The notes under the pieces: model-generated | The model's database searches: none | Told to the model about the DNA's origin: nothing | The model's input: the letters and a program-made list of their open reading frames with translations, nothing else | Shown here: positions 53,806 through 62,682 of the stretch, piece after piece | Layout of the letters: every line of letters begins with the position of its first letter | How positions within the stretch are numbered: the first letter of the stretch is position 1 | DNA from: an uncultured bacterium | Lineage (GTDB): Bacteria > Margulisbacteria > WOR-1 > CAZGTC01 | Assembly (NCBI GenBank): GCA_964528395.1 | Contig: CAZGTC010000009.1 | Location: forward strand, 1,304-65,303 | DNA length: 64,000 nucleotides | Reading direction: 5' to 3' | Made by a program: the position numbers and the translations under genes

Positions 53806-54303
53806 ATGTACTACCAAGAAATTATTGAGGCCTTAAATAAAAACAACATCCGCTACGTCATTATCGGAGGATTAGCCTTAGTCTTGCACGGGGTTGTACG
53901 TTTAACTGCTGACCTAGATCTAATTGTTGATTTTGAAGAAAAAAATCTTAAAAAACTCCTAAAAGTTCTAGAACAATTAAATTTTAAGCCCCAACTGCCA
54001 ATAGACGCAAAAAAATTACTAGAAGAGAAAACTAGGAAAAAATGGGAAATCGAAAAAAACATGAAAGCTTTTGCTTTTATTCACAAAAAAGATGATTATA
54101 AGCTTATTGATATCATCATTAATCCCCCCTTATCTTTTAATGAGGTTTATAAGCGTAAACAAGTCATACAAGCTCAAAAAACAAAAATAAATGTTATTTC
54201 CTTTGAAGATTTGATAACTTTTAAAAAACAAGCTGCCAGAACCCAAGATCTAAAAGATATTGAAATGCTGCTAGAATTAAAAAAACATGAAAAAAAGCAA
54301 TAA
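53806..54303 (+). CDS. Minimal nucleotidyltransferase (DUF6036-like)
   Basis: YVIIGGLALVLHG..R.TADLDL, K.AAR.QDLKDI. Confidence 0.8.
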   Translation: MYYQEIIEALNKNNIRYVIIGGLALVLHGVVRLTADLDLIVDFEEKNLKKLLKVLEQLNFKPQLPIDAKKLLEEKTRKKWEIEKNMKAFAFIHKKDDYKLIDIIINPPLSFNEVYKRKQVIQAQKTKINVISFEDLITFKKQAARTQDLKDIEMLLELKKHEKKQ

Positions 54304-54611: not shown

Positions 54612-55778
54612 ATGCGCTTTGTACATTTTTCTGATACACACCTTGGTTACGCGGCTTTTCGCAAGATCACAGAAGCTGGGTATAACCAGCGCGAAGAAGA
54701 CTTGAACAATGCCTTTATCCAAGCCATTGATAAGATCATTGAATTAAAGCCGGATTTTGCCCTGCATAGCGGGGATCTTTTTGATTCTGTTAGGCCAACC
54801 AACAGGATTATCCGCTTAGCCATTGAGCAAATTTTACGTCTTATCAAAAATAATATCCCGTTGATCATGATTTCCGGTAATCATGAAACCCCTAAGCAAC
54901 GCTATCTGGGTTCTGTTTTTTCTATCCTAGGGGTCCTGCCCCTGCCTGCCGGCAGGCAAGGCTATCCAGATAATTTATTAAAAGTTTCACACCATGGAAT
55001 ATATGATCAAATCCTAGTGAAAAATAATTTAACCATCCACGCTATTTCCCAATGTGCCAATGGAGAGCTTTTCCAAAAAGAAATAGAAAAAATACAAATC
55101 AACCCGCAAACTTATAATATTTTGACCATGCACTGCGGCATTTCCGGCATGCAGGAATTTTCTCATGGGGATTTTAACGAGCTTTTGGTTGATTACCAAT
55201 TTTTCCAAAACCATAAGTTTAACTACATTGCACTCGGACATTATCATAATTATATCCAAGTCGGGCCCCGAGCCTATTTTGCCGGGTCAACTGAAAGATT
55301 AAGTTTCAACGAAGCGGGAAAACAAAAGGGATTGGTTGAAGTAACCCTAGATAAAGAAACCACGGTTAGATTCCATGAAATTAAAACCCGCCCCATGCTG
55401 GAACTTTCTACTATCAATGCCCAGGATAAAGAAATCAACCAGCTAACTGAAGAAATAGAAAACCACATAAAAAATGCGCAGCCTGAAGGAAAAATCATGC
55501 GCTTCAAAGTTGAGAATGTCCCCTCCCATATTTTTGAACATTTGGACATAAAAAAATTCCGTGAAATGGCTAAAGACGCTTTGCACTTTGAACCCATTAT
55601 TGAAAAAAAAGAAGATCAAAAAAACCACCAAACCTATAAGCCAAAAATTGGGGGATTGGTGGAAGAGTATGGGACATTTATTAATCATCACCCGGGTTTA
55701 TCCGAAGAAGAAAAAAAAGAGCTTCTACAAAACGGACAAACATACCTAGCCAAAGTTTTGGAGGAAAGCAAACAATAA
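54612..55778 (+). CDS. sbcD: SbcD/Mre11 nuclease
   Basis: HFSDTHLG, SGDLFD, GNHE, ALGHYH, AGSTER. Confidence 0.92.
   Translation: MRFVHFSDTHLGYAAFRKITEAGYNQREEDLNNAFIQAIDKIIELKPDFALHSGDLFDSVRPTNRIIRLAIEQILRLIKNNIPLIMISGNHETPKQRYLGSVFSILGVLPLPAGRQGYPDNLLKVSHHGIYDQILVKNNLTIHAISQCANGELFQKEIEKIQINPQTYNILTMHCGISGMQEFSHGDFNELLVDYQFFQNHKFNYIALGHYHNYIQVGPRAYFAGSTERLSFNEAGKQKGLVEVTLDKETTVRFHEIKTRPMLELSTINAQDKEINQLTEEIENHIKNAQPEGKIMRFKVENVPSHIFEHLDIKKFREMAKDALHFEPIIEKKEDQKNHQTYKPKIGGLVEEYGTFINHHPGLSEEEKKELLQNGQTYLAKVLEESKQ
54941..54960. repeat. Near-perfect palindrome CCTGCCTGCC-GGCAGGCAAG in frame in sbcD
   Basis: Translated LPAGRQG. Confidence 0.7.
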
Positions 55779-55781
55779 ATT

Positions 55782-57944
55782 ATGCGATTAGTATCATTAA
55801 AACTAAAAAACTACCGCCAGCATGAGGATACTTTTGTTGAATTTCCGGATGGCTTAATCGGCATCATTGGGTTAAATGGCGCGGGAAAATCATCGCTGAT
55901 TGAAAGCATTGCCTGGACGCTTTTTGGGAGCCTGGCTGCGCGCACCGATAAAGAAGGCATTAAAAGAACCTCGGCTCCTGCAAATGCCAGCGTTGAAACC
56001 AGCCTAGAAATTGAGCTGAACGGAAATTATTACAAAGTCCAGAGAATATTAAAAGGAGACAAGCAAACCGCGCTCGCCTCAATAATTGCCAATGGAAAAG
56101 TAATTGCGGATACTACAAAAGCCTGCGATAAAGAAATTGAATATCTTTTGGGCATGGATTATAAATCTTTTTATACCAGCTTTTTTGCCCGCCAAAAAGA
56201 ATTAAATGCTTTGACTGACTTAAACCCCAACCAGCGGCGCGATATTATCATCCGCATGCTGCGCATTGACGCCATTGACAAGACCATTGATATGATCAGA
56301 AGCGATTCCCGCGACCAAAAAATGCAGGCCGAAGTCTTAAAAAAAAGCCTAAAGGATCCTAATTTATTAGAAAGCCAGAAAATAGCACAAGAAAAAAAAT
56401 TAGGGCAAATACAAGGACAGCTGCAAAAACTAGAAAAGGAATTAGAAAAACAAGAACAAGTTGTAGGCAAATTTAAAGATTTATTTGCGAATGAGAGAAA
56501 AATTTACGAAAAGTATAATGAATTAGAAAATCAAATTATTAAACATAAAACCAAGTTAAAACAAGGACAAAAACAAGCACAAGATATCAAAAAAGAACTG
56601 GAGAATATTAAAGAGCTGGAAAACAAAATAAAAACTATCCGGCAAAGCACTAAAGACTTGGAAAATCTGGAAAAAGAAAAAAAAGCCTTGGATCTAAACC
56701 GCGAGAACAATCTGGTCAAAGCCCAGGAACATTTAACCACAATAGAAAAATCCTTGTCTGAAAACTCTGCCCATTTAAAAATTTTAAGAGAAAAATATAA
56801 AGAGATTGCAGACAGCAAAAAACAAATAACTTCCCGCGGAAAAAATGCCGCCTGCCCCACCTGCCACCGGGAGCTGGGAAACGATTTTGAAAAAATCATC
56901 TCTCATTTTGACGAAGAGTTAAATAAAATAACGAAAGAAGCTGATAGCCTAAAAAAAGAAAATGACTTAAAAGAAAACCAGAAGATTGAAATCAGCCTTA
57001 TAATAAAAAACCTAAGGCAAAACCTGCCGACAAAAACCACGGCTCTACAGATTAGTTTGTTCCAAAAAGAATATAACCCAAAAGAGCTTACAGATATTCA
57101 AGATAAAATTAAAGCAGCACAAAAAGCTAAAGACGAATACGTTAGACTTTCCGCGCAGATCGAGCAAAAACCAAAACTAAAAGATGAAGAACAGAAAATT
57201 AATCGAGAAATAGAACAAATTCAGCAAACACTAGAAAAATTAGAAAAAGAACAAAACGAACTGAAATACAACAAAGAAGAACACAGCAAAATTACCCGCC
57301 AAAACGAAGAAGAAAAAGAAAAACTAAGGATCCTGTCCCAAAACTTAAGCCAAAGCAAGATAGAACTGGTTTCCTGCGAAAAAGAGATCGAAAAATTCGA
57401 TGCAGAGATCAAAAATATTGAAAGCACTAAAAAAGCCATTGAAAAGCTGGCGCAAAGCCAAACCAAAATCACCCAGTTGACGAATATTATGGATGAATAC
57501 CGCACGCATTTGATCTCGCGCATCCAGCCCGAACTATCAAAAACCGCCAGCGACCTATTCATCACCCTAACGGATGGCAAATATTCTGGTATTGAACTAG
57601 ACGATAAATACGACCTATTTATTTATGACGGTAATATTAAATATCCTCTCTCGCGCTTTTCCGGAGGAGAAGCCGACCTGGCAAACCTTTGCCTGCGCCT
57701 GGCAATTTCCCAGCTAATTTCTGCATCCGCTGGCATTGACGGCGGGTTTATTATTCTGGATGAAATTTTTGGCAGCCAGGATGATATACGGAAAAATTCA
57801 ATCCTCAATGCTCTGGCAAAATTATCCAAACAATACCGCCAAATCATAATCATCACCCATATTGAGGACATCAAAGATTCGCTTGAAGCTATTATCGAGG
57901 TTAAAGAAAACGAGCAGGGAACCAGTCAAGTCAAACAAATTTAG
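55782..57944 (+). CDS. sbcC: SbcC/Rad50 SMC-like ATPase
   Basis: GLNGAGKSS, Q-loop FARQ, zinc hook CPTC, FSGGE signature, ILDEIFGSQD, IITH. Confidence 0.93.
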   Translation: MRLVSLKLKNYRQHEDTFVEFPDGLIGIIGLNGAGKSSLIESIAWTLFGSLAARTDKEGIKRTSAPANASVETSLEIELNGNYYKVQRILKGDKQTALASIIANGKVIADTTKACDKEIEYLLGMDYKSFYTSFFARQKELNALTDLNPNQRRDIIIRMLRIDAIDKTIDMIRSDSRDQKMQAEVLKKSLKDPNLLESQKIAQEKKLGQIQGQLQKLEKELEKQEQVVGKFKDLFANERKIYEKYNELENQIIKHKTKLKQGQKQAQDIKKELENIKELENKIKTIRQSTKDLENLEKEKKALDLNRENNLVKAQEHLTTIEKSLSENSAHLKILREKYKEIADSKKQITSRGKNAACPTCHRELGNDFEKIISHFDEELNKITKEADSLKKENDLKENQKIEISLIIKNLRQNLPTKTTALQISLFQKEYNPKELTDIQDKIKAAQKAKDEYVRLSAQIEQKPKLKDEEQKINREIEQIQQTLEKLEKEQNELKYNKEEHSKITRQNEEEKEKLRILSQNLSQSKIELVSCEKEIEKFDAEIKNIESTKKAIEKLAQSQTKITQLTNIMDEYRTHLISRIQPELSKTASDLFITLTDGKYSGIELDDKYDLFIYDGNIKYPLSRFSGGEADLANLCLRLAISQLISASAGIDGGFIILDEIFGSQDDIRKNSILNALAKLSKQYRQIIIITHIEDIKDSLEAIIEVKENEQGTSQVKQI

Positions 57945-58508: not shown

Positions 58509-58517
58509 ATTATATCA
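58509..58517 (-). promoter_or_regulatory. Extended -10 (TGATATAAT), 6 nt before the pyrR ATG
   Basis: Overlaps the PGM stop TGA; no SD. Confidence 0.5.
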
Positions 58518-59951
58518 AATTTTATTGATAATTGCCTTAACATCCTGCTGGATAAGGGATAATTTTTCCAAAGAATCTGACTCAAAATACCCCCTAAGCA
58601 ATGGCTCGGTGCCAGATGGACGAAGTAAAACCCAAGAAGATTGGTCTTCGAGCAAGAATTTAACTCCATCAATAATTTTTAGCTCTTTTACCTTTAGATT
58701 GCCAATAGTTTTTATGCCCTTGGCTGCCTGGGCTAATTTCTCTTTTACCCCGGGTTTTACCGGCAAATTAATTTTTCCCTGATAAAAAGCCCCTAATTCT
58801 TTTTCCAAATCCGCATAAATTTGCGAGAGAGGCTTATTATAAGCATTAAGCATCTCAACCATAAGCAAATCTGCCAAAGTCCCGTCTTTTTCCGGGATAT
58901 GGTTCAGGATTGAAAGCCCCCCGCTCTCTTCCCCGCCTAAGACCACTTTTTCTTTGAGCATGATTTCTGCGATATATTTAAAGCCCACGGGCACTTCGTG
59001 TAATTTAACTTTGTATTTAGTGGCTAACTTATCTAACATATGGGTTGTGCCAACTGATCTCACCAAGCTGCCGCGCCAGCCTTTTTTTTCCATTAAGTAA
59101 TTGGCGAGAAGAACAACCACGCGATGCGCGCTAATAAATTTCCCTTTTTCATCAATTACTCCAAAGCGATCCGCATCCCCGTCATTGGCCAGCCCTAAGT
59201 CACAAGTTTCAATTTTTACGGTTTTTGCCAGCTCATGCAAATTTTCTTCATCGGGCTCTGGAGACCTTCCTCCAAACAGAACATCGCGCTGGCAATTCAG
59301 TGCGATAATTTCATGGCCGAGTGATTCTAAAAAAGCATCAATATAACCTCGGCCTGACCCAAACATAGCATCATAAGCAATTTTTCTTTTGGTTTTCTTA
59401 ATTAAAGCTATATCTAAAAAAGAAGACAAATAATCAAAATAATTGGGGCGGGGATTAAAATGATCGAAGGTGCCTCGACACCTCGACTCCGCTCGGTGTC
59501 CAGAGCTGTCTCGTACCCTGAGCGGAGCCGAAGGGTTCGCTGAGAGCTCGCTTTTTAAATTCTCTTCTATTTCTTTGGTAATCGCTAAATTGGCTGGACC
59601 CGCATATTCTGGAATAAATTTTATGCCGCAATACTGCGCTGGATTGTGAGAAGCCGTGAGCATAATTGCACCAGAAGCTTTTCTTTGTTTTATTTCCCAG
59701 GCAATCACTGGAGTTGGGGTATCGCGGTCAGGAAATAAGCAATTGATTCCAGCCTCATTCATGACTTTAATGATTTCTAAAGCAAACTTATCTGCTAAGA
59801 ATCGAGCATCGTAGCCCACAATTAAAACTTTTTTATCTAATTTGTGTTTTTGCAGGTAAATAGAAATTGCCCGGGCTACTTTTTTGACATTTTCAAAAGT
59901 AAACTCATCGGAAATGATTGCCCGCCAGCCATCGGTTCCAAATTTAATCAT
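58515..59951 (-). CDS. Phosphoglucomutase/phosphomannomutase family protein
   Basis: FGTDGWR, TASHNP phosphoserine, DGDADRF, VPVGFK, GGEESGG, RPSGTEP. Confidence 0.95.
   Translation of the reverse strand: MIKFGTDGWRAIISDEFTFENVKKVARAISIYLQKHKLDKKVLIVGYDARFLADKFALEIIKVMNEAGINCLFPDRDTPTPVIAWEIKQRKASGAIMLTASHNPAQYCGIKFIPEYAGPANLAITKEIEENLKSELSANPSAPLRVRDSSGHRAESRCRGTFDHFNPRPNYFDYLSSFLDIALIKKTKRKIAYDAMFGSGRGYIDAFLESLGHEIIALNCQRDVLFGGRSPEPDEENLHELAKTVKIETCDLGLANDGDADRFGVIDEKGKFISAHRVVVLLANYLMEKKGWRGSLVRSVGTTHMLDKLATKYKVKLHEVPVGFKYIAEIMLKEKVVLGGEESGGLSILNHIPEKDGTLADLLMVEMLNAYNKPLSQIYADLEKELGAFYQGKINLPVKPGVKEKLAQAAKGIKTIGNLKVKELKIIDGVKFLLEDQSSWVLLRPSGTEPLLRGYFESDSLEKLSLIQQDVKAIINKI
59477..59536. 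repeat. Inverted pair of REP-like hairpins in frame within the PGM/PMM gene
   Basis: GACACC-TCGACTCCGCTC-GGTGTC (59477-59500) and ACCCT-GAGCGGAGCCGA-AGGGT (59515-59536). Confidence 0.85.
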
Positions 59952-59959
59952 AGGTGATG

Positions 59960-59999
59960 ATTATACCAGATTGTTTTATAGCCGAAAACCCTTTAAAAT
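59960..59999. promoter_or_regulatory. Divergent promoters for PGM (TGGTATAAT, - strand) and tadA (TTGTTT-N17-TAAAAT, + strand)
   Basis: Each -10 lies 8 nt before its ATG (59951; 60008), with no SD. Confidence 0.6.
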
Positions 60000-60007
60000 A
60001 GTAAGCT

Positions 60008-60457
60008 ATGCATGAAAGTTTTATGAAAGAAGCTTTGAAAGAAGCAAAAAAAGCTTATCAAAAAAACGATGTGCCGGTTGGCTGCGTGGCAGTGAAGAAC
60101 GGAAAAATCATTGCCCGCGCCCATAATCTGCGGGAATCAACCAATGATCCAACTGCGCACGCAGAAATCTTGTGCCTCAAAAAAGCTGCGAAAAAGCAAA
60201 AATGGTGGGTTTTAAAAGATGTAGATATTTATGTAACCTTAGAGCCCTGCCCCATGTGCACAGCAGCAATCATGCAGGCTAGGGCCAGAACTATCATATA
60301 CGGGGCGGACAATTTGTTGTGGGGGGCTTGCAGTAAAAAAATAAAACTAGTTGACAAAAAAATCTTTCAGCATAAAATAAAGATTGTAAAGAATGTTTTA
60401 CCTAAAGAATCTTCAACATTGCTGAAAAAGTTCTTCAAAAAAGTGCGCAAAAAATAA
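60008..60457 (+). CDS. tadA: tRNA adenosine(34) deaminase
   Basis: VPVGCV, DPTAHAE, TLEPCPMC. Confidence 0.92.
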   Translation: MHESFMKEALKEAKKAYQKNDVPVGCVAVKNGKIIARAHNLRESTNDPTAHAEILCLKKAAKKQKWWVLKDVDIYVTLEPCPMCTAAIMQARARTIIYGADNLLWGACSKKIKLVDKKIFQHKIKIVKNVLPKESSTLLKKFFKKVRKK

Positions 60458-60468
60458 ATTCCCGGTGC

Positions 60469-60498
60469 AAGAGACAGTCTAAACGCTGTCTCTTTTTT
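60469..60498 (+). terminator. Intrinsic terminator after tadA
   Basis: GAGACAG-tctaaacg-CTGTCTC followed by TTTTTT. Confidence 0.75.
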
Positions 60499-60503
60499 AT
60501 GGA

Positions 60504-60565
60504 GGTCTCCTCGACTCCGCTCGGAGACCAGGTCATTCAGGTCATTGAGCGAAGTCGAAATGACC
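60504..60565. repeat. REP-like inverted pair upstream of tRNA-Ser
   Basis: GGTCTCC-TCGACTCCGCTC-GGAGACC and GGTCATT-GAGCGAAGTCGA-AATGACC. Confidence 0.88.
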
Positions 60566-60573
60566 GCTATAAT
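60545..60573 (+). promoter_or_regulatory. TTGAGC-N17-TATAAT promoter for tRNA-Ser, -35 inside the repeat
   Basis: -35 at 60545-60550, -10 at 60568-60573, tRNA begins 60590. Confidence 0.7.
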
Positions 60574-60589
60574 ACAACAATAAATTTCT

Positions 60590-60678
60590 GGAAGAGTGGC
60601 CGAGTCTGGTTGAAGGCGGACGCCTCGAAAGCGTCTATACCTGAAAAGGTATCGGGGGTTCGAATCCTCCCTCTTCCG
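60590..60678 (+). tRNA. tRNA-Ser (CGA), 3' CCA not encoded
   Basis: GGAAGAG/CTCTTCC acceptor stem, GACGC-CTCGAAA-GCGTC anticodon arm, long variable arm ATACC-TGAAAA-GGTAT, GTTCGAA T-loop, G73. Confidence 0.96.
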
Positions 60679-60726
60679 TTCCCCGGGTATATTCCGGGCA
60701 CATCCTTTACACTTTTTTATGACCAC

Positions 60727-60788
60727 GTTCCCTTCGACTCCGCTCAGGGAACTGAACAATCGGTCATTGAGCGGAACCGAAATGACCG
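60727..60788. repeat. REP-like inverted pair upstream of the GIY-YIG gene
   Basis: GTTCCCT-TCGACTCCGCTC-AGGGAAC and CGGTCATT-GAGCGGAACCGA-AATGACCG. Confidence 0.88.
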
Positions 60789-60795
60789 TTATAAT
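60767..60795 (+). promoter_or_regulatory. TTGAGC-N17-TATAAT promoter, 6 nt before the GIY-YIG ATG
   Basis: -35 at 60767-60772, -10 at 60790-60795, ATG 60802, no SD. Confidence 0.7.
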
Positions 60796-60801
60796 ACAGG
60801 C

Positions 60802-61179
60802 ATGAAAGGCTACATGTATATTTTAGAGTGTGGAGATGGAACATATTATACAGGCAGCACTAAAAATCTAGAAAAACGTCTGCTAGAACATGGTAATTCT
60901 ATGGGAGCAAACTACACAAAAAAGAAACAACCTCTCAAATTAGTATACTTCGAAGAATATCCAAGAATTGACGAGGCTTTTCATAGAGAAAAACAAGTTC
61001 AAGGTTGGAGTCATGCAAAGAAAAAAGCTCTGATAGAAAGCAAATTCAAAGATTTGCCTCCGTTATCTGAGTGCAAAAATGTTAGCCATTATAAAAACAG
61101 TCGCATCGATTCGACGGACACTTCGACTTCGCTCAGTGTTCGACCCCACTCGGCAACCATCACTCGGTATCCGAGTTAG
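60802..61179 (+). CDS. Small stand-alone GIY-YIG nuclease (UPF0213/YhbQ-like)
   Basis: YMYILECGDGTYYTGST, RLLEH, GANYT, LVYFEE, AFHREKQVQGWS..KKKALI; start set at ATG 60802 because the upstream ORF part overlaps the tRNA. Confidence 0.9.
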   Translation: MKGYMYILECGDGTYYTGSTKNLEKRLLEHGNSMGANYTKKKQPLKLVYFEEYPRIDEAFHREKQVQGWSHAKKKALIESKFKDLPPLSECKNVSHYKNSRIDSTDTSTSLSVRPHSATITRYPS

Positions 61180-61207
61180 TTCGTCATTGAACATAGTCGA
61201 AACGACC
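61116..61207. repeat. REP-like pair downstream of and overlapping the GIY-YIG 3' end, with an internal small hairpin
   Basis: GACACT-TCGACTTCGCTC-AGTGTT; ACTCGG-TAT-CCGAGT; degenerate GTCATT-GAACATAGTCGA-AACGAC. Confidence 0.8.
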
Positions 61208-61259
61208 ACGTAAATATTAATAATCATCAGAATCTATATTTTATATAATCTCAGGAAAA

Positions 61260-61817
61260 ATGTTAAAATACAAACATATGCAAACAACACAATCACTAGA
61301 CCAAATGAAAGCTAATATTGATGGAATTTTTAATAGACGGTTATTAAATATCCCTAACGATATCAAAAAAGAATTTCCAGATATTCTGAAAGCAGAAAAT
61401 ACTCATCAAATAACTTACTATGCAGAAAACAGATATCTTCTTATTGCCTTTTTTTACGCAAAAGAACTCGAAAGAATCAATCAGTTTCTAAATAATAATC
61501 ATCATCCATTTCCCGGCTTAATATCAGAAGACGCGAAAAACCCCGGGGCTTTTAAGTTACAAGATAGCAGAAATATCTTAATTGAAAACTGTACAATATC
61601 AAACACATTTTCATTCTCAAACTGCAAAGATTCAACTATTTTACTAAAAAATCATGAACAGAATATAACTACTAATGAAATCAACCAATTAAACTATAAA
61701 ATTGATTTAGCTTTCATTGTTTTTTTAGGAAAAAATATTAACAATGAAAATTTATTGGAAAACTTAGAAAACTTAACAACCTTTGCAGTCAACAAATGGA
61801 GCTCAAAAATTGGATAA
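61260..61817 (+). CDS. Hypothetical protein, very AT-rich
   Basis: 185-aa ORF with no recognised motif; overlaps the next ORF. Confidence 0.6.
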   Translation: MLKYKHMQTTQSLDQMKANIDGIFNRRLLNIPNDIKKEFPDILKAENTHQITYYAENRYLLIAFFYAKELERINQFLNNNHHPFPGLISEDAKNPGAFKLQDSRNILIENCTISNTFSFSNCKDSTILLKNHEQNITTNEINQLNYKIDLAFIVFLGKNINNENLLENLENLTTFAVNKWSSKIG

Positions 61818-62466
61818 TCCATATGAAGAATTAAAAGGTTTAATTTCTTCTAAAAATAAAAATGAAATCCTGTGTAGGAAATATCTAAAACATACACCTC
61901 AAATTCTATTTAATAAGTCAGTAATAGCCCTTATAAATTTTGATGAGGAAGATCGTGGAAGTTCTGGAGATTCCGATTATGTTATATCCGGAATAGTTAA
62001 AAACGACGCAGGTAGTGAATATAATTTAGCTTATATATGGGAAGTAAAAGCTGCCCAATGTTATATTTTTGAAGAAGAAACAAAAAATAGACTTAAACCG
62101 TCATCAGATTTAGTAAAAGCAGAAAATCAATTAATAAATTATTATAATGACAAAAAAGGAGATGAAAAATTCAGAAATCGTTTTAAAATAACACACTCAA
62201 ATTTTGTAAAAATAGGAGGGATAATAATCGGATCAAATAAAACATTAATAAAATCAAAAAAAATAAAATCAAAACAAACCTTTCTTGAAGCCTCAAGTTT
62301 AAGAGAAAATACTCTATATAAAAGCCCGGGCATAAGATTAATAATTTGGGATACTATTTTAGATCAATTAAAAAATCAAGAATATAACAATAAAACAGAA
62401 AATGGAAAAATAAAAAACATCTCAATCCCAAATGCTCAAACAGCTAATTTCATTAAAATAGATTAA
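61810..62466 (+). CDS. Shedu/DUF4263-like PD-(D/E)XK nuclease domain protein
   Basis: NE..CRKYL...PQIL, SDYV, WEVK, PSSDLVKAENQLINY, IIIGS, IRLIIWDTIL; TTG 61810 follows GGAG (ORF track starts at 61783). Confidence 0.65.
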   Translation: MDNPYEELKGLISSKNKNEILCRKYLKHTPQILFNKSVIALINFDEEDRGSSGDSDYVISGIVKNDAGSEYNLAYIWEVKAAQCYIFEEETKNRLKPSSDLVKAENQLINYYNDKKGDEKFRNRFKITHSNFVKIGGIIIGSNKTLIKSKKIKSKQTFLEASSLRENTLYKSPGIRLIIWDTILDQLKNQEYNNKTENGKIKNISIPNAQTANFIKID

Positions 62467-62516
62467 TAAATTTTTCATAATATATAAATTTAATTCAAAA
62501 TAAAGAAAAGTAACTT

Positions 62517-62632
62517 GGTCGTTGAGCGGAGTCGAAACGATCTTCTTAAAGTACCCTTCGACTCTATAGACACCTCGATTCTGCTCGGTGATCGGATAAC
62601 TCGGTCGTTGAGCGCGGTCACTGAGCGCAGCG
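62517..62632. repeat. REP-like cluster closing the island
   Basis: GGTCGTT-GAGCGGAGTCGA-AACGATC; partial CCTTCGACTC; CACC-TCGATTCTGCTC-GGTG; further decayed TTGAGCG/CTGAGCG copies. Confidence 0.8.
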
Positions 62633-62682
62633 ATACCACATTTGTCATTTGACATTTTTAATTGTTAATTGGAGCGCAGCGA

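Follow-up and report, generated by a model that had tools for sequence, protein, structure and literature searches.

Roughly 30% of Shedu proteins have no domain other than the nuclease. How these stay harmless to their host, and yet are directed against phages, is a question left open by the structural studies of this family. It is raised again by a gene at 61810..62466 (+ strand) of a 64,000-nucleotide stretch of DNA (positions 1,304 to 65,303 of contig CAZGTC010000009.1, assembly GCA_964528395.1; hereafter the window) from an uncultured bacterium of the WOR-1 lineage, which encodes a 218-residue, DUF4263-only, Shedu-like nuclease of the PD-(D/E)xK type according to the public gene call and the alignment of its relatives. 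For one widespread and divergent branch of such nucleases, present in Bacteria, Archaea and viral contigs, the locus points to an operon-encoded partner as a possible answer. Positions 61260-62466 are probably a horizontally acquired, two-gene Shedu-like module, in which the product of the upstream open reading frame (ORF), termed here ORF1, would hold the nuclease inactive or regulated, and of which a phage copy is a candidate for anti-defence.

By its predicted fold and its motifs, the nuclease belongs to the DUF4263/Shedu superfamily of PD-(D/E)xK enzymes, and a cleavage activity is predicted for it. The initial annotation, made from the sequence alone, had listed a series of motifs for the ORF at 61810-62466, and all of them are present in the translation, which contains NEILCRKYLKHTPQIL, GDSDY, IWEVK, KPSSDLVKAENQLINYY, GGIIIG and LIIWDTIL. 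Its proposal of a Shedu nuclease with a QxxxY helix is supported. The Pfam profile SduA_C (PF14082, DUF4263) aligns with residues 19-182 along its positions 4-157 of 159 (E 1.4e-4, though below the gathering score), and the PADLOC SduA model also matches (E 3e-5); the NCBIfam models gave no match. The search for homologues yielded 62 proteins, nearly all of them 200-250 residues long, and SduA_C matches 41 of the 56 members of the family alignment (E<0.01), the best with an E-value of 3e-7.

All four catalytic motifs of the family, namely I (E), II (D), III (ExK) and IV (Q), can be placed in this protein. Residues G53, D56, W77, E78, Q83, R94, P97, A104, E105, N106, L108, G137 and I140 are invariant in the 56-member alignment, E19, K80, Q107 and Y111 are nearly so, and E19, D56, E78, K80 and Q107 (with Y111) are each invariant or at least 90% conserved. 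This pattern fits the proposed motifs I (E19), II (D56), III (E78-x-K80) and IV (Q107-x3-Y111, the QxxxY helix). The assignment was made by order and spacing, which is similar to that of E204/D249/E264/K266/Q295 in the Bacillus cereus protein BcSduA, and not by residue-level superposition. The alignment served to build an AlphaFold2 model (predicted local distance difference test score, pLDDT, 89; predicted template modelling score, pTM, 0.83), which was compared with the PDB by Foldseek, a comparison with SduA structures which the initial annotation had suggested. The only significant match was 8ti9_B, the nuclease-domain octamer of B. cereus Shedu (E 1.7e-5, probability 1.0, TM-scores 0.52/0.59, identity 17%), the second-ranked match having an E-value of 0.03. 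The model therefore shows the elaborated PD-(D/E)xK fold that is characteristic of Shedu nuclease domains.

The architecture is that of the nuclease domain alone. The protein begins 18 residues ahead of motif I, and an N-terminal extension is absent in all homologues; the sensor or regulatory domain that is fused to DUF4263 in type 1 Shedu is lacking, and the 218-residue protein, with its Pfam match at residues 19-182, corresponds to the DUF4263-only type, called type 2 by Gu et al., who counted 2,286 such proteins among 7,687 Shedu proteins, and type II by Loeff et al. The initial annotation had taken the gene for a single-gene Shedu system with a variable N-terminal sensor. This part did not survive, since the N-terminal domain is missing and the nuclease comes second in a conserved operon, whose first gene had been overlooked.

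That first gene, ORF1 (61260..61817, + strand, 185 amino acids), lies directly upstream of the nuclease. The ORF listing gives the nuclease ORF as 61783..62466 (+), with 227 amino acids when counted from the first TTG, and it contains no in-frame ATG. The public gene call (P0001, 218 amino acids, identical protein) places the start at TTG 61810, in register with the N-termini of all nuclease homologues in the alignment. The stop codon of ORF1 (TAA, 61815-61817) overlaps this start by 8 nt, and a Shine-Dalgarno-like GGAG, read from the sequence, lies within the 3' end of ORF1 at 61799..61802 (+), 7 nt before the TTG, a position consistent with translational coupling of the two genes.

The same arrangement recurs in distant genomes. 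At the first five homologous loci inspected, a gene of 161-178 codons, whose product is 24-36% identical to ORF1, runs 4-17 nt into the nuclease gene. A scan with the nuclease, with one genome per species, gave 25 loci in Bathyarchaeota, delta-, alpha-, beta- and gammaproteobacteria, WOR-1, CPR3, Patescibacteria, LCP-89, Poribacteria and Chloroflexia, and a scan of viral contigs added two more (IMG/VR). The loci found through the nuclease, 33 when redundancy is removed, were searched with hidden Markov models built from both alignments. In 28 of them the partner domain lies immediately before the nuclease in the same orientation, with the two genes abutting or overlapping; these pairs span Bathyarchaeota, Proteobacteria, WOR-1, CPR3, Patescibacteria, Poribacteria, Chloroflexia and the two IMG/VR contigs. 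In the reverse direction, seven of the eight loci found through the partner are pairs. The pairwise identities of the partners and of the nucleases are correlated over 25 pairs (Mantel r=0.61; none of 5,000 permutations as high). Judged from these sequences, the nuclease and ORF1 form a conserved and, by all appearances, translationally coupled two-gene operon. In view of the overlapping upstream partner and of this correlation, the original definition of Shedu, whereby one gene is sufficient and there is no dedicated partner, does not describe the locus.

The five unpaired loci are L021, L026, L028, L118 and L032. The nuclease of L032 is truncated, and the protein upstream of the nuclease in L021 is a Fic protein that resembles by eye, over an N-terminal stretch, the partner of another locus, L025. 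The remaining three represent a divergent branch, whose nucleases carry a C-terminal extension of about 110-140 residues, which may stand in for the partner in cis. In this branch (Caballeronia, Paraburkholderia and a metagenome contig), no ORF1-type partner was detectable upstream, and the L028 locus has a GmrSD gene about 1 kb ahead of its nuclease. Signs of decay were also observed among the modules: the partner is N-terminally truncated in L001 and L010, both genes are frameshifted in L029, and in L032 the decay affects the nuclease, as mentioned.

The defence and mobile-element genes adjacent to homologous pairs comprise Cas1 (fragments), an integrase together with CcdA, GmrSD and SIR2_2, and the pair of Pseudomonas rhodesiae lies in the tail region of a prophage. 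Such neighbours fit a role in defence or in mobile elements. A tblastn search with ORF1 and the nuclease against GenBank phages and PLSDB plasmids gave no match.

The partner itself represents a family of its own in the searches made. Neither Pfam, NCBIfam, PADLOC nor PHROG models recognised ORF1, its AlphaFold2 model is of moderate quality (pLDDT 72, pTM 0.73) and matched nothing significantly among PDB and BFVD folds, and the partner profile found nothing among PDB sequences. Searched exhaustively with the partner profile, a set of 1.84 billion representatives contained 186 partner clusters at 50% identity, almost all of 160-200 residues. Conserved in the family are the PFPGLI motif and Y146..L150-A, together with a moderately conserved central stretch of consensus N.FSFS.GKDST. 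Fusions of partner and nuclease were found neither among 150 listed of the 186 partner clusters nor in the 62 nuclease clusters.

Some partners carry additional N-terminal sequences. Fic/DOC extensions occur in some alphaproteobacterial partners: the proteins at L023 981-2123 and L025 2682-3983 begin with a Fic/DOC domain and also match the partner domain (weakly in L025), and each is followed by an overlapping nuclease gene. In L021 (2631-3920) the Fic domain is likewise followed by an overlapping nuclease gene, and the partner domain is not detectable. The partner P0124 (L124) shows an N-terminal trypsin-like match, weak and below threshold, and P0131 (L125) has an N-terminal extension without a Pfam match, which may contain a partial duplicate of the partner domain; an overlapping nuclease gene follows both.

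The closest relative of ORF1 was found without a nuclease, on a phage-like contig. This orphan partner gene, P0064 (L034 10001-10564; GCA_964554235.1, CAZKNU010000002.1), encodes a protein 63% identical to ORF1, compared with about 35% for the next-best operonic partner, and the two genes share 79.7% DNA identity over 473 nt, the similarity ending just inside the end of ORF1. The ratio of nonsynonymous to synonymous substitution rates (dN/dS) is 0.31 at a dS of 0.8, which indicates that both copies are maintained by purifying selection. P0064 lies within a run of small same-strand genes that code for a virion structural protein (PHROG 8510), YopX and members of other PHROG families, and no nuclease was found in the inspected 17 kb of this contig, even at E<=10. 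A scan of viral contigs with P0064 returned nothing. P0064 is a candidate anti-defence gene, that is, a captured copy that would keep the nuclease off; a precedent exists in the orphan antitoxin that serves as a phage counter-defence against DarTG1 (PMC11825919).

The mechanism that we propose on this basis is as follows. The downstream gene would provide a minimal DUF4263/Shedu PD-(D/E)xK DNA nuclease devoid of a sensor domain, and ORF1 would provide a dedicated partner, supplied in trans and in a stoichiometry fixed through translational coupling. The partner would bind the nuclease oligomer and keep it inactive, or regulated, in trans, until a phage cue released the nuclease to cut DNA. A phage-borne orphan partner would then act as a mimic, by which the nuclease is kept switched off. 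If true, an off-switch of this kind would explain the harmlessness of the sensor-less type II Shedu nucleases, and would reveal a natural protein that inhibits a Shedu-family system, P0064 being a concrete phage-encoded candidate.

The inhibitory role suggested for ORF1 is derived from the order of the two genes, from the toxicity of isolated DUF4263 domains and from the cofactors predicted for type II proteins. An upstream gene whose stop codon overlaps the start of the next is the order typical of antitoxin-toxin pairs. On their own, the DUF4263 domains of BcSduA and EcSduA are toxic; in the full proteins, N-terminal or linker regions restrain them (bioRxiv 10.1101/2023.08.10.552793; 10.1101/2023.08.10.552762). 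Loeff et al. described the mechanism of type II Shedu as unclear, and as probably involving additional cofactors (10.1101/2023.08.10.552762). A stronger form of the proposal, whereby ORF1 represents a new protein family and fold that serves as the trans off-switch of DUF4263-only Shedu-like nucleases and has been captured by phages as a stand-alone anti-Shedu protein, is put forward tentatively, and as a whole we hold it to be the less probable outcome.

Several observations weigh against the proposal. With regard to the nuclease, the Pfam score is only 22.3-22.5 bits, below the gathering score of 27, such that the model checks suggested in the initial annotation gave near-full-length matches and still fell short of the Pfam threshold. 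The TM-scores to 8ti9_B are low (0.52-0.59), and sequence searches of the PDB, with the single nuclease or with the family profile, did not reach the SduA chains. The link to Shedu within the PDB thus depends on the fold search, and the failure of the profile together with the sub-threshold Pfam score indicates a distant branch of the Shedu superfamily. As for the context, the module in the window sits among housekeeping genes and not in a defence island. A single orphan phage copy was found, with 17 kb inspected of its 40.8-kb contig, which may represent a prophage in a metagenome-assembled genome. In one contig of run X3, from a third groundwater sample (2.6x, a depth too low to trust), TT is inserted after 61744, which would shift the frame of the last ~24 codons of ORF1 and lead to a stop at 61774-61776; if real, this would argue against an essential antitoxin. 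Finally, in KELShedu, a two-gene system of Escherichia coli (KELA and KELB; Sci Adv 2025, PMC12577705), the small partner binds DNA, stabilises the nuclease and sensitises it, and is not a plain inhibitor, so that the direction of regulation by ORF1 could be the opposite of the one proposed.

This last point leads to the main alternative, in which ORF1 would be a positive cofactor of the KELA kind, binding DNA, targeting or stabilising the nuclease, which on its own would be inactive or unstable. ORF1 might then recruit the nuclease to phage DNA, or sense a metabolite such as the level of nucleoside triphosphate (NTP). KELShedu is the only characterised two-gene Shedu; its two proteins form a complex and both genes are required for defence, and KELA binds double-stranded DNA, solubilises KELB and sets its NTP sensitivity (PMC12577705). 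Loeff et al. likewise predicted cofactors of type II Shedu 'for target recognition' (10.1101/2023.08.10.552762), and the N-terminal Fic or trypsin-like domains on some partners are what a sensor or adaptor would be expected to have. It is not obvious, however, what a phage would gain by carrying only the activator of a nuclease of its host, and still purifying selection acts on the orphan copy; moreover, two Shedu DUF4263 domains are active and toxic on their own. We therefore consider a positive role of ORF1 rather unlikely.

The second alternative is a plain toxin-antitoxin (TA) addiction module, which would stabilise the island or mobile elements and have no role in phage defence. It is in keeping with the overlapping pair, with a small gene upstream and a nuclease downstream, with the location of the module on mobile or prophage DNA at several loci, and with its housekeeping neighbours in the window. 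Against it stand the several homologous pairs that adjoin the Cas1, GmrSD and SIR2_2 defence genes, and the phage defence exerted by the tested members of the superfamily to which the nuclease belongs; moreover, TA and defence roles can coexist. A pure addiction module is thus improbable in our view.

A stand-alone, single-gene type 2 nuclease with ORF1 as an unrelated neighbour has very little probability. Its DUF4263-only architecture is that of the type 2 proteins of Gu et al., for which a constitutively active, restriction-like mode has been proposed, but the partner lies immediately upstream and overlaps in the great majority of the loci, in two domains of life, and co-varies with the nuclease. 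Almost no credence is due to the reading that the A5 run at 61807-61811 hides a frameshift or sequencing error and that a single gene has been split there, whose real product would be a type 1 Shedu of about 400 residues in which ORF1 forms the N-terminal sensor: the ORFs do overlap in adjacent frames, deletion of one A would fuse them and the combined length would suit type 1, but the nuclease homologues lack an N-terminal extension, no fusion occurs among the listed partner clusters, the split recurs with varied overlap lengths in dozens of unrelated assemblies, and the sequence is identical in three independent runs at 13-14x depth.

Compared with the systems described so far, the pair shares with type 2/II Shedu the lone DUF4263 PD-(D/E)xK domain, with motifs I-IV and without an N-terminal sensor. 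Those proteins have been described as single-gene systems, either 'likely constitutively active' or dependent on unknown host cofactors, whereas here a partner is encoded in the operon, and the nuclease is distant in sequence, under the Pfam gathering threshold. The type 1 proteins (B. cereus SduA, E. coli SduA and VcSduA) have the same nuclease core and catalytic motifs, and their nuclease is restrained by a non-catalytic module, as is proposed here; their regulatory module is fused in cis, being drawn from 79 N-terminal domain families, in contrast to the separate polypeptide of the present locus. In KELShedu, too, the gene just ahead of the DUF4263 nuclease is small and its product has an unknown fold. 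KELB, however, is a protein of 362 residues with an N-terminal domain of its own and DUF4263 at residues 146-313, unlike the DUF4263-only nuclease of the window, and KELA has 111 residues, as opposed to the 185 of ORF1; going by what has been published on it (PMC12577705), KELShedu is built differently. Type II TA modules, such as DarTG1 with its T4-like orphan antitoxin (PMC11825919), share the overlapping small upstream gene and the phage that carries the upstream gene alone; as an antitoxin, ORF1 would be a large one, and profiles recognise no DNA-binding motif in it; toxicity and neutralisation are presumed for the present pair.

Two-component Shedu systems are hence already known from KELShedu (2025), and what is new is the combination of a DUF4263-only nuclease with a family of partners of about 175 residues. 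The searchable literature yielded no description of such a pair, and literature searches found no natural protein inhibitor of a Shedu-family system. PADLOC v2 holds no model matching ORF1 and no two-gene model matching the pair. At least 186 partner clusters are missed by the current Pfam, NCBIfam, PADLOC and PHROG models, and annotation pipelines would call the locus either nothing or a single-gene Shedu. A model built from the partner alignment would allow the pair to be recognised.

The origin of the module can be approached through its composition and surroundings. The GC content of 61260-62466, which comprises ORF1 and the nuclease, is 0.268, compared with a window mean of 0.421 (standard deviation 0.039), and only one of 628 sliding 1.2-kb windows is lower, itself overlapping this stretch. 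At third codon positions (GC3) the nuclease gene has 0.137, versus 0.35-0.47 in the neighbouring genes. The AT-richness reported by the initial annotation is therefore real, and its suggestion of horizontal acquisition agrees with our own reading: the module looks foreign, on account of its extremely low GC and GC3 and of its patchy distribution across Bacteria and Archaea. The initial annotation had supposed an arrival without an integrase. No integrase was found in the 58-64 kb region of the window, and the 3' end of the nearby tRNA-Ser gene is not repeated directly, as it might be at an attachment (att) site. As to an island-free relative, the TadA search gave no relatives, and the 80 loci with AhcY relatives (identity <=77%) share none of the tadA, PGM (phosphoglucomutase), pyrR or GIY-YIG neighbours. 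The reads and contigs of three groundwater runs contain no island-less variant, and in the population of these runs the depth of the island equals that of its flanks.

The initial annotation had further described the nuclease gene as cargo bounded by repeats. As a description this is correct, yet the same repeats also bracket other genes. They form a family of palindromic, hairpin-forming elements of about 70-115 nt, whose core has eight matches in the window, all at 59.48-62.54 kb, with 0.24 expected by chance; the copies overall span 59468-62650. To the left of the operon lies copy U3 (61108..61222, +), into which a GIY-YIG ORF extends with its 3' end and which is accompanied by weak promoter-like hexamers at 61197-61224. 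On the right, the adjacent or overlapping copies U4 (inverted) and U5 (direct) occupy 62505..62650, between the nuclease stop and an S-adenosylhomocysteine hydrolase-like (ahcY) gene, which lies beyond them and is convergent with the nuclease. Further upstream, U1 (60496-60580) precedes the tRNA-Ser(CGA) gene (60589..60679, +) and U2 (60719-60802) precedes the small GIY-YIG nuclease gene (60802..61179, +; Pfam GIY-YIG, E 1.4e-16). A promoter scan found an identical TTGAGC-N17-TATAAT in both U1 and U2, and the repeat may thus serve as a portable promoter. The GIY-YIG gene, situated between copies, may be a selfish or homing-type element tied to the repeats.

One copy (59468-59552) lies in-frame inside a phosphoglucomutase/phosphomannomutase-like gene (58515-59951, - strand), where it corresponds to about 19 inserted residues (…SAPLRVRDSSGHRAESRCRG…) when the protein is compared with the Thermus phosphomannomutase (PDB 1tuo). 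Rickettsia palindromic elements are likewise inserted in coding regions. Loose contig ends at 62640 indicate more copies elsewhere in the metagenome. Since copies also bracket the tRNA-Ser and GIY-YIG genes, occur within the phosphoglucomutase-like gene and are present on other contigs, the repeats appear to be a dispersed family resembling repetitive extragenic palindromes (REP) or miniature inverted-repeat transposable elements (MITE), and not demonstrated ends of a mobile element.

Some further features were noted elsewhere in the window. An SbcD/SbcC-like pair is encoded at 54612-57944. Its SbcC-like member contains a K/E-rich coiled coil, which accounts for a very pronounced AT skew at 56.3-57.5 kb, so that this skew is no anomaly. 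A DUF6036/AbiEii-like nucleotidyltransferase gene at 53806-54303, of the type found as toxin in type IV TA systems, adjoins a patch of low GC at 53.2-53.8 kb, which corresponds to the 3' end of a Ser/Thr kinase gene.

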